A stretch of 64,000 nucleotides of DNA from Escherichia phage PMBT16: sequence record PP554575; one strand, written 5' to 3'. The notes below the pieces were generated by a model that was not told the origin of the DNA, made no database searches, and was given only the letters and a program-made list of their open reading frames with translations. Shown here piece by piece: positions 8,440 through 14,067 of the stretch. Every line of letters begins with the position of its first letter. The first letter of the stretch is position 1. The position numbers and the translations under genes are program-made.

Positions 8440-11400
8440 ATGCTTCCAATCCCTTTGCTAAAACTTGGTCGTCATTTCCTCGATAAGAGGGGTGGAATTA
8501 AGGAACTTGCTGTTCTGTCATACCCAATAGACAACAGTGATGGTACAAGCAACACAGTATCCTATGTAAATAGCTTAGCTATACTTTTTGATGATGGTCA
8601 GCTTAATATTACTGGCTATAATAGGTTCGGAGAGTGTCGGACTGGAGATCTTGATACAATAAACTATCCTAATGAGGCAGCTTGGAACGTAGACCATGTT
8701 TGGAGAGCTGACCGTGCATTTGTAATCCGCACATTCGATAATAAATTTTTCTATATTGGTTGCACAGCTGGTCTTATCGGATCGGAGGCAGCAGGTGGAA
8801 ACGATGTTTGTGTCAGAGAGTGGACACCTTTGCCGGAACAGATCGTAACAGGGTTGCATTTGGACACCCATCCTGAGAGACTTGTTGAAGTAATGGGTGG
8901 CGTAAACAATACAGTGTGGGTAATTGCTGCACCAGAGGCTGATGGTATGCTTCACCTGTACGGCTCTGGCAATAATACTTACGGCTCTCTTCATGTTGAC
9001 AAAAGTCAACACGCTACTCCAGTTAAGATCGGTGAAACATCTGAAAGTCCAGAGACAGGTCCTTGGAAAAATCCAAGAATTAATTGTGAAGTTCATGACA
9101 ACTCGGTTATTTTTGGTGGTCCTAACGGATTCTGGATTGCAGGTTACGATTTCTTAAGAAATAACAGCAAAAACACACTAGTTTATCCAGCCGAGCATGT
9201 GACTCTTGACCAGTTTAAAGGCATCCCGGTGGGCGAGACATGGAAAGGGTTCATGTGTGGACCTAATGGTGCAATTATAGCCACAGAAAGGATGCACAAA
9301 CCTGATGACCAACAGCTTGTTAATGTGTTTTATGGTCAGGATGTTTGGGGTGACGACACGTGGAGAAGCCTTAACATCACCTATACCCATGAAGTAATTA
9401 TGGCTCGCGGGTACGGGACTAGTGGAATTTTCTTCAATAATGGTACAAAACAGTACCGTGGTTTCTCCAGAAACCTGTGTAACGATATTGGTGCTCAATC
9501 TGCTAATAATAGTCCTAGGGCCAATTTTATTCATTACAGAGCGCTGGCAACAGCTAAGTTTGTTGAACAGACAGAGCCAGTAAGCTGGACAGAAAGCGTT
9601 TATTTTCAAGGGATCCACAGGGAAGGTTTCTTAGGCACATTCTGTGTGGTAAATGGAAAGCTTTGGTGGTCAGGAATACCACGTGGTAGTTTTTCAGGAT
9701 CTAATAACCTCTTTGGCGGCAGACTTAACAGCCAAGGGTTCACAGAGATTCCGGAGAATTGGTATAAAAATGTCCCGGTAGATAGCTGGGGTATCGAAGA
9801 CATCTTTGATGTCAATGGTGTGAGCAATGTTAGCAACATTTACATCGGAGATACTGTCAAGATGAAATTGAAACCTCAGCCGGAGGGTGCTACGTTCATT
9901 ATTGACAAGATTGAGTTGGTAAATGCTGCAGGCACTGTTGTTACAGATGCAAACTATCAGTTCTCCACTAACTGGAACCATGGTGGTGCTAACGAAGTTG
10001 TGGTCACCCAGTATAACCGTAACATCAACAGACGTGGTTTGTATTCTATCAAGATCACCTACCATGACAAGCATGGCACTGGAAGAACCTATACGACAAG
10101 GACTTTGAACTGGAACACTATAGTTCCTGCGTATCCGTCCAACGGCAAGTGGCATACCGTTGGTAGAAACAAGCAGTTCCATGTTAACGATACTGTATAC
10201 TTTGGGCTGAATGGGACCCAGCCTGCAGTAGAAGGGGATACATCGTATATGGTCAGACTCCACAGAATGGATGCTGGATCAGTCACTTATGATGTGACCC
10301 AAGAGATCTACGATCAAAGACGCGCCACGTATGACAATATTGTGAAAACACAAGCCTTGTGGGAGTTCAATCCTAATGGCAAGGGTGGTAAAATGTTGCA
10401 GGTTAATGAGCAGAACGGAACGTCGTTGACTGTTCACGAACACCCAGACCCTTGGCCTGATCCTGGAAAACCTCACCCGGGAGCTCGTACACTGAAAATT
10501 GTCAGCCATGATGCAGGATATTTCGGAATACGCTGGGAAGCTACAGTAAGATATGTCGACGGGACAACAAACAACATAGGGATTACACTTGGCGGCACTA
10601 GTGAAGATAACTCGCTGAAAATTGCCTACACGCCCAGAGGTATCTCTATTGATAATATGGATGTTGTTCGCAATGGTTACGGCGATGTGAATGTCAAAGT
10701 TACTCTTGGCGAACATCTTGGTGGGGAAAGGATCATCATGTATGCCTTTGATCATGATCCACGCACCAATGGAACTTATGCAAATCAGGCATGGAGTTAC
10801 CTGATAAATGCACCTGAGCCGAATACTAAAGAGTTCTACTATGGTATGAAGCGAGATGTGTGCAAGAAAACAGGAACACATGACTGGATTGCTATCTGCG
10901 TTAAAGATGAGCGCACAGCTTGGGATGAACCTGTTAACAGATGGTTCATAGGTATTCCTACCAGAAGTGATAAGTATGTCGCAGAATATATTGTATGCAT
11001 GGGTGGTACCAACCTGAACATGTGTTGGAACGAGGATGCAAACAAATACTCTGATTATGACTATATGAGGGATTACTCTTGTAATCAGTGGTTTAACCAA
11101 TCAACAGGATACCCTCCACGTCAGGCGAGAGTAAACCCTGCAATCTTCACAGATACGCAGGTTTTCTTGACAAAACAGGCCAACGAGGTTCAGACCTTCA
11201 AGAATAAATACGATCCTAACAAGTGGTTCTACAACTGTTACGGCGCATTTTTCTGGGGACCTGGTGAGTTACCTGGTGGAGGATCTTGCTTGAATGAGGC
11301 AACTTACGCCAGTGACTACATCATGGGGCAGGTCAAGAAGTATAAGATAATCCCCGGTCCTGAGACTCTGGGCAATGCCGTTGACCCTTATATCATCATG

Positions 11401-14067: not shown

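Follow-up and report, generated by a model that had tools for sequence, protein, structure and literature searches.

We describe here the gene that closes the tail module of Escherichia phage PMBT16 (sequence record PP554575), as found in a stretch of 64,000 nucleotides (nt) that was analysed as a whole and that we refer to as the window. It is a single open reading frame (ORF; 8440–14067, + strand) that begins with ATG and has 1875 codons, a terminal stop and no internal stop codons, and its product is a protein of 1875 amino acids (aa), 208 kDa and pI 6.25. A preliminary description drawn from the sequence had placed a single 5.6-kb ORF at the end of the tail module, and the coordinates, the strand and the position within the block all hold. 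The gene itself is not new: it is already catalogued as rV5 gp27, as phrog_15684 and in BASEL, and it was a hit in a published transposon screen, yet it is uncharacterised. What we add is a corrected domain map, a link to shorter orthologs in sister genera, a set of natural domain boundaries, and a conserved hairpin in front of the gene.

A giant gene at the end of the fibre block

At the DNA level the gene is 99% identical to that of Shigella phage CM1 and 91–98% identical to those of more than 100 Vequintavirus (rV5-like) genomes, and 107 phage records cover at least 80% of it. The protein matches phrog_15684 from end to end (expect value (E) 0, 4457 bits, aa 1–1874 against profile positions 1–1877 of 1878), and the gene lies where those of that group lie, after a phiTE_241-type fibre at the end of the tail-fibre block. 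Its direct orthologs are rV5 gp27 (YP_002003529; 1878 aa), annotated as 'Ig-like domain-containing protein; cell wall surface anchor', and bas51_0041, bas54_0041 and bas56_0040 of BASEL, annotated as 'lateral tail fiber protein with intimin domain'. These are alike in position and length (1875–1878 aa) with 91–99% aa identity, and the sole notable difference from rV5 is the allele of the C-terminal tip (...AYTNFPS in PMBT16, ...AYATFSR in rV5). At 90% identity this narrow family comprises only 15 clusters, and its distant members, at 45–58% identity, come from uncultured phage contigs with identical synteny. We also note that 16 unannotated 'Campylobacter phage' records (GenBank MG0656xx, listed host C. 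jejuni) are 95–99% identical to the giant gene and that one MG0656xx record (B15) has the Phapecoctavirus version of it; these records look like mislabelled E. coli phages.

The giant gene is the last of a rightward tail/baseplate/fibre block. By PHROG assignment the block runs from a baseplate wedge and a baseplate protein through an N4 gp65-like TIM-barrel fibre, two short tail fibres with a chaperone, and a small membrane protein to a 581-aa fibre immediately upstream. The GC skew reverses at around 14 kb, and in annotated relatives the genes 3' of the giant gene lie on the - strand. Coordinates of all features are collected in Table 1.

Propeller, orphan body and Ig-like module

RCC1-like repeats had been assigned to the N-terminal third of the protein. 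The RCC1-like assignment is borne out by ortholog homology, although the propeller covers about the first quarter (aa ~20–445). Taken by itself, the giant protein is a poor match to the known families: a whole-protein Pfam scan gave no RCC1-type match at E≤1, PF25390 ('RCC1-like domain', RLD) matches aa 45–199 with E 4e-4 and 20.2 bits against a cut-off of 150 bits, and RCC1_2 (PF13540) reaches 13.7 bits, below its gathering score of 22. The blade signature G-x-N-x-x-G-x-x-G is present at aa 59 and aa 175, and tblastn shows that the first ~207 aa are common to a different Phapecoctavirus 'tail protein'. The RCC1-like assignment is nonetheless solid because the N-terminal ~440 aa align with orthologs that pass the Pfam threshold. 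In a joint alignment with 4MG gp038, the Csp-D17 homolog and ESCO13 gp245, all shorter proteins encoded in the matching slot, this region is homologous throughout, from the M-x-P-I-P start to the last blade, and BLASTP of the N-terminal 440 aa against the short positional orthologs gives E 2e-13 and 3e-27, plus the closing blade. The short proteins score 24–37 bits with PF00415 (threshold 21.7) and E 1e-9 to 8e-11 with the RLD model, and they match the solved RCC1-like domains of HERC2 (E 7e-7), HERC1 (4e-6) and RPGR (2e-4). When a profile of the joint alignment was searched against the PDB, the HERC2 RLD was the one match, with E 0.17.

The model of the N-terminal half has a low confidence (predicted local distance difference test (pLDDT) 40.7) and is used as corroboration only, although its high-probability fold matches are UVR8, RCC1, WBSCR16 and RPGR. 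Seven candidate blades can be read by eye within aa ~46–440, and the self-similarity of the blades is weak (E 0.01–0.05). The description of these repeats as glycine-rich stands only marginally, with 11.1% glycine in the propeller and 9–10% in the adjacent regions. By homology, aa ~20–445 is thus a divergent RCC1-like propeller that makes up the first quarter of the protein.

At the other end, the proposed Big_2 Ig-like (immunoglobulin-like) domain is confirmed, with scores of 35.8–38.8 bits against a gathering score of 22.8. Within the C-terminal module, aa 1593–1760 also match phrog_215 with E 2e-29, a family named 'structural protein with Ig domain' and placed in the head and packaging category. 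Foldseek searches with the C-terminal half returned only Ig/cadherin-like strings, S-layer proteins, Hoc, and tail or capsid proteins with Ig insertions, and an independent BFVD model of a C-terminal fragment from V18 superposes on our model with a template modelling score of 0.88. The two allelic forms of the tip are represented by ...AYTNFPS in PMBT16 and by ...AYATFSR in rV5, FV3, naam and EdH4. A precomputed Pfam family, PF26918, is recorded beside Big_2 on the C-terminal ~400 aa of family members.

Between the two lies a body of about 970 aa that is specific to the family. A phmmer search with aa 460–1433 against 1.84 billion representative proteins recovered only the family itself, the family profile has no match in the PDB outside the Ig region, no library contains a match for the body, and profile self-comparison detected no internal domain repeats. 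The AlphaFold2 alignments were shallow (16 sequences), as word-indexed searches gave near-identical fragments only, whether started from the N-terminal 460 aa or from the C-terminal 291 aa, and the models have pLDDT values of 40.7 for aa 1–960, unusable alone, and 58.6 for aa 941–1875. The confident blocks are beta-sandwiches at aa 970–1125, 1332–1428, 1500–1570 and 1590–1760. The one helical segment, modelled with pLDDT below 35 and with no Pfam or PDB match or relative in any library, is rich in invariant charged, Cys and aromatic residues (E1162, D1163, H1191, R1192, C1222, R1228, C1229, Y1230, E1235, E1280 and E1288), and could be a binding or catalytic core. The distant members of the family share aa 1–1433 and 1585–1857 with the giant protein, and do not share aa 1434–1584. 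Over the full length there is no predicted transmembrane segment (highest Kyte-Doolittle score in a 19-residue window, 1.13) and no enzyme-family match in Pfam, NCBIfam or PDB profile searches.

The proteins encoded in the matching slot at the end of the fibre module in sister genera put this layout in context. Seunavirus 4MG gp038 (PVP-SE1 gene 40; 567 aa), the Cronobacter phage Csp-D17 homolog (570 aa) and Phapecoctavirus ESCO13 gp245 (891 aa; phrog_11922) share with the giant protein the preceding hairpin, the N-terminal peptide, the propeller (27–39% identity) and Big_2, although the Seunavirus and Phapecoctavirus proteins lack the body and have Big_2 directly after the propeller. The distal part of ESCO13 gp245 is related to the RcGTA head-spike fibre Rcc01080 (E 6e-14), and the C-terminus of the 4MG ortholog matches a Hoc-like protein in the PDB. 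In ESCO13 and phi92 the slot lies among tailspike and fibre genes. phi92 gp152 retains the N-terminal 16 aa and two Big_2 domains that are 62% identical to those of ESCO13, with the propeller excised, so that it is precisely an ESCO13-type protein minus its propeller (locus 11321–11929). It is followed by gp153 as a separate gene (locus 12096–12983), for which the annotators found no ribosome-binding site (RBS) and which has a weak match to sialate O-acetylesterase-type SASA (E 0.008), an intriguing one given that the phi92 host is polysialic-acid-capsulated. These comparisons show a modular family: the N-terminal peptide and Ig-like domains are constant, as the propeller usually is, and the distal end is exchangeable. 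In the rV5 supergroup the last gene of the tail module is conserved in its design, RCC1-like plus Big_2, and the earlier statement that the domain combination was not a recognised one therefore overstated its novelty.

Table 1. Features of the giant gene and its surroundings (coordinates of the window; aa positions of the giant protein)
Feature	Coordinates	Strand	Basis
690-aa protein, TIM-barrel fibre	1175–3247	+	PF23845
88-aa 'membrane protein'	6370–6636	+	phrog_1322
581-aa fibre, rV5 gp28 ortholog	6646–8391	+	phrog_4549
Terminator-like hairpin (9-bp GC-rich stem, 4-nt loop) and T-rich tail, between upstream fibre stop codon and ribosome-binding site	8399–8429	+	Sequence, covariation; terminator according to EdH4 annotators
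Ribosome-binding site GGAG, 6 nt before ATG	8430–8433	+	Read from sequence
Giant ORF, ortholog of rV5 gp27 and bas54_0041, full-length phrog_15684 member	8440–14067	+	Sequence and homology
Invariant N-terminal peptide M-L-P-I-P-L-L (consensus M-x-P-I-P)	8440–8460	+	Alignments; retained in propeller-less phi92 gp152
Predicted RCC1-like beta-propeller, aa ~20–445, ~7 candidate blades; best-conserved part of the protein, variable loop at aa 251–275	8497–9774	+	Profile searches, ortholog alignment
Family-specific 'orphan' body, aa 446–1416, mostly distinct beta-sandwich modules (e.g. aa 450–567, 970–1125) and one helical segment; block deleted in APECc02	9775–12687	+	Models, searches
Only predicted alpha-helical region, aa ~1127–1331	11818–12432	+	Low-pLDDT model, invariant columns
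Segment aa 1434–1584, genus-conserved, no detectable similarity to 45–58%-identical uncultured relatives	12739–13191	+	Alignments
C-terminal module, aa 1585–1875, Ig-like beta-sandwiches including Big_2; pLDDT 80–93 for aa 1590–1760	13192–14064	+	Model, alignments
Big_2 (PF02368) Ig-like domain, aa 1682–1733	13483–13638	+	Pfam
Variable C-terminal tip, aa 1751–1875, two allelic forms in the genus	13690–14064	+	Records matching nt 1–5256 only; genus alignment
Terminator-like hairpin and T-run, at convergence with leftward genes	14082–14112	+	Sequence; annotated terminator in rV5 and EdH4
134-aa ORF, probably not a gene	14168–14572	+	

Variation, dispensability and the upstream hairpin

Comparison between lineages shows the propeller to be the most similar part, with identity falling off toward the C-terminus. 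Inside the genus, 95–100% conservation is the rule for most of the protein, the exceptions being the loop at aa 251–275, aa 951–1275, and the tip. Across ten genomes the ratio of nonsynonymous to synonymous substitution rates (dN/dS) has a median of 0.08 overall and lies between 0.04 and 0.12 in every region, so that strong purifying selection maintains the protein in nature. In a transposon screen (HIDEN-SEQ), bas54_0041 could be disrupted without loss of infectivity on E. coli K-12 or of virion formation, and some Bas54 lateral fibre genes, which are not named, were conditionally essential on clinical isolates (bioRxiv 10.1101/2025.11.20.689424). The orthology of bas54_0041 to the giant gene was checked here. 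Two phages carry natural deletions. APECc02 has lost exactly the orphan body (aa 440–1416) and also has frameshifts (locus 2501–5173); if these frameshifts are sequencing errors, the product would be a 'mini' protein of propeller and C-terminal module with an ESCO13-like layout. V18 lacks aa 91–316, and its gene is split into four ORFs (locus 1501–6063).

The spacer between the upstream fibre gene and the giant gene is 35–50 nt long and contains a terminator-like hairpin that ends a few bases before the RBS. A GC-rich hairpin with a 4-nt loop, followed by a T-rich tail, is present at the matching position in seven lineages, represented by PMBT16, an uncultured relative, ESCO13, 4MG, Csp-D17, CB7 and phi92. 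In an alignment anchored on the loops, which favours the structure, 93.7% of cells are paired, seven of the nine pairs are changed on both sides, none of 500 shuffles reaches the score, and slid controls score far lower. RNAalifold found no structure in a MAFFT alignment of the intergenic spacers, because the stems are out of register in that alignment. Despite the anchoring, the recurrence of a stable hairpin at one place in seven diverged spacers is the observation itself. A promoter would not fit between the hairpin and the RBS, and the simplest reading is therefore that only read-through transcripts encode the giant protein. The conserved hairpin suggests throttled, low-copy expression, through what we infer to be read-through.

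The neighbouring genes have features of their own. The 690-aa protein contains a TIM barrel of the N4 gp65-type non-contractile tail sheath (PF23845, E 4e-80), together with an N4 gp65-type N-terminal domain and a Calx-beta-like domain, and its ligand is proposed in BASEL to be enterobacterial common antigen or the N4 glycan receptor. The 88-aa 'membrane protein' (phrog_1322, moron/auxiliary category) is kept at the matching place in rV5 (gp29), 4MG (gp040), APECc02 (gp178) and phi92 (gp144), and a fibre module is an odd site for a protein of this kind. A relative of the 581-aa fibre carries the precomputed Pfam families Phage_phiTE_241_N and _C. The first ~107 aa of the 581-aa fibre resemble the phi92 gp150 colanidase tailspike (46% identity, E 2e-25), and we read the two from this similarity as a common N-terminal adaptor on differing distal domains. 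LL12 gp27 has been likened to the N-terminus of phi92 gp150, a spike located in the phi92 cryo-electron microscopy (cryo-EM) map (PMC7229145), which would link the giant protein to the downward tail spike. We reject this link; the likeness belongs to the upstream fibre gene because the LL12 numbering is offset by one, and the gp150 match falls on the 581-aa fibre, with none to the giant protein. Downstream, the 134-aa ORF has no PHROG or Pfam match and overlaps - strand genes annotated there in relatives, and is probably not a gene.

Candidate roles and comparison with known proteins

There are several plausible models for the giant protein to consider. We put at about even the chance that it is a non-essential, low-copy, tail-associated, adhesin-like appendage, which we predict is probably non-trimeric. 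We infer its virion location, polarity, ligand, oligomeric state and dependence on read-through as follows. The conserved N-terminal end, comprising the peptide and the propeller, would dock onto the conserved baseplate/fibre network, the beta-sandwich body would form an extended stalk, and the variable Ig-like distal end would contact surface glycans, either weakly or host-specifically, giving better adsorption on some natural hosts. If hairpin read-through transcripts alone encode the protein, it would be made in small amounts and be present in low copy number. Within the family an adhesion-type module lies distally, as the relationship between the distal part of ESCO13 gp245 and the RcGTA head-spike fibre indicates.

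The preliminary description had offered adhesins, decoration proteins and ejected proteins as possible roles. An adhesin fits best because of the Ig strings, the variable tip, the absence of an enzyme or membrane signature, the dispensability on K-12 and the RcGTA-spike-like distal module of ESCO13, whereas an ejected protein is unsupported because there is no transmembrane segment and no lytic domain, and the gene is dispensable; decoration is weighed below as a rival. The finding that the description had named as decisive against it, an end-to-end match to a tape measure or tail fibre that has been characterised, was looked for and did not appear. A tape measure is also rejected on other grounds, in that the protein is mostly beta and its gene follows the fibres at the end of the module rather than lying between the tail chaperones and the baseplate hub; the rV5 tape measure is gp49 (PMC8594841). 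A secreted protein is likewise rejected, the product being mostly beta, dispensable and lacking a transmembrane segment.

Virion association of the giant protein is weakly supported by three low-scoring peptides of rV5 gp27 and, somewhat better but indirectly, by the detection of RCC1/BLIP-II-type proteins in virions of the related phage W70 (PMC11370258) and by confirmation through mass spectrometry (MS) of CB7_37, the product of the same-slot gene in Certrevirus CB7 (PMC7344957). Several observations weigh against a tail-associated appendage as we have drawn it. In virion MS, the three rV5 gp27 peptides were non-tryptic or semi-tryptic and gave 3.1% coverage, a level also reached by proteins that are clearly non-structural (PMC3606486 Table S5). 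Of nine annotated fibres, only three were resolved by cryo-EM of Bas54 and Bas49, and the giant protein was not assigned in Bas54 (PMC12143355). The propeller homology of CB7_37 (413 aa) is only suggestive (E 0.002–0.003, hhalign probability 14%), and phi92 gp152 retains the peptide and Big_2 without the propeller, which therefore cannot be the sole or obligatory anchor. To these must be added the poor structure models, in which the proposed beta-sandwich stalk is only partly modelled, the loop anchoring of the hairpin alignment, and the possibility that the hairpin could merely stabilise the upstream mRNA instead.

The name used in BASEL implies a classical trimeric lateral tail fibre, in which the giant protein would form one of three Vequintavirinae fibre sets and its C-terminal tip would be a receptor-binding domain required on certain hosts. 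Such a role is consistent with the place of the gene within the fibre module and with the two-allele tip, as well as with the conditional essentiality of some unnamed Bas54 lateral fibre genes on clinical isolates, but we consider it unlikely. No coiled-coil-prone or beta-helix segment and no S74-type chaperone domain is predicted; searches of Pfam, PHROG, NCBIfam and the PDB gave no characterised-family, coiled-coil, beta-helix or S74 match, there is no match to tail-fibre Pfam or PHROG families beyond the protein's own, and the models consist of beta-sandwiches plus a single short helical stretch. Moreover, the typical state of RCC1-like propellers and Ig strings is monomeric, no gene for an assembly chaperone follows, the next genes being on the opposite strand, and the giant protein was not assigned in the Bas54 cryo-EM. 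A Hoc-like decoration protein, with its Ig string on the capsid or tail surface providing weak, non-specific adherence to mucus or glycans outside the baseplate fibre network, would account for the phrog_215 match with its head and packaging category, for the fold matches to Hoc and to major capsid or tail proteins with Ig insertions, for the Hoc-like match of the 4MG C-terminus, and for a gene that is dispensable, as Hoc is. However, the gene ends the baseplate/fibre block and not the head block, its slot in ESCO13 and phi92 is among tailspike and fibre genes, and the two-allele tip on a common N-terminal module looks like fibre-style modular exchange, so that decoration too appears improbable to us.

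The polarity could also be the reverse of that proposed, with a lectin-like or catalytic propeller as the active head that recognises a conserved host structure, and with the N-terminal peptide, the Ig part or both attached to the virion. The precise excision of the propeller from phi92 gp152, which kept the peptide and Big_2, is what might be expected of a functional cassette that is optional. Further points in favour are the discrete hypervariable loop at aa 251–275 and the use of beta-propellers as platforms for binding in other receptor-binding proteins of phages. We nonetheless think this arrangement doubtful, as no region is better conserved than the propeller, whether within or between genera, an unusual pattern for a surface that contacts the host, and the variable or swapped modules are C-terminal in every lineage examined. 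That the gene is non-structural or decaying, for instance an operon-end remnant with no role in the virion, we regard as highly improbable: the dispensability on K-12, the deletions and frameshifts in APECc02 and V18, and the very weak virion MS evidence point in that direction, but the 5.6-kb ORF is intact in more than 100 genomes, dN/dS is ~0.08 along the whole length, and both the synteny and the upstream hairpin are kept from one genus to another. A bolder proposal, which we hold to be distinctly unlikely when taken as a whole, is that the protein would be a monomeric tail adhesin of a new kind with an N-terminal propeller, whose body, including the conserved helical segment, might carry an unseen glycan-binding or glycan-modifying activity that extends host range, with its dosage set by terminator read-through conserved in at least seven lineages.

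The rV5-like phages serve in therapy and biocontrol as agents of broad host range, and the roles of their roughly nine 'fibre' genes are still unsettled. Our analysis gives the largest of these genes a more accurate label, that of an RCC1-like propeller with an orphan stalk and an Ig-like tip in place of 'lateral tail fiber with intimin domain', and connects it to shorter positional orthologs in sister genera that should be easier to study. The APECc02 and phi92 deletions and the two-allele tip provide natural domain boundaries for engineering, and the conserved attenuator-like hairpin may set the copy number of the giant protein. Current understanding is not overturned by this; the hypotheses for a known dark-matter gene are narrowed.

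The proteins to which the giant protein can be compared each resemble it in part. The likeness to intimin and invasin lies in one Big_2-type domain (PDB 1E5U/1F00, E 0.006–0.013; NCBIfam intimin, E 9e-6), and the 'intimin domain' of the annotators is merely one Big_2-like Ig domain: the NCBIfam intimin match spans 39 residues and scores 23.7 bits against a cut-off of 1400 bits, and the beta-barrel anchor, LysM and C-type lectin domains of the full intimin/invasin architecture are lacking. To the seven-bladed superfamily of RCC1, the HERC2 RLD, RPGR, UVR8 and BLIP-II (IPR009091) it is related by the blade signature, the RLD matches, the PDB matches of its orthologs and the fold matches of a poor model, although it is very divergent and below the Pfam thresholds, its propeller is N-terminal in a protein of a phage structural module, and nothing points to guanine nucleotide exchange factor-type or chromatin functions. 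With T4 Hoc, the Hoc-like proteins and the phrog_215 proteins it has in common both tandem Ig-like domains and dispensability, and Hoc-type proteins are thought to give weak adherence. It differs from Hoc in being about five times larger, in having a propeller and an orphan body, and in being encoded in the fibre module rather than with the head genes.

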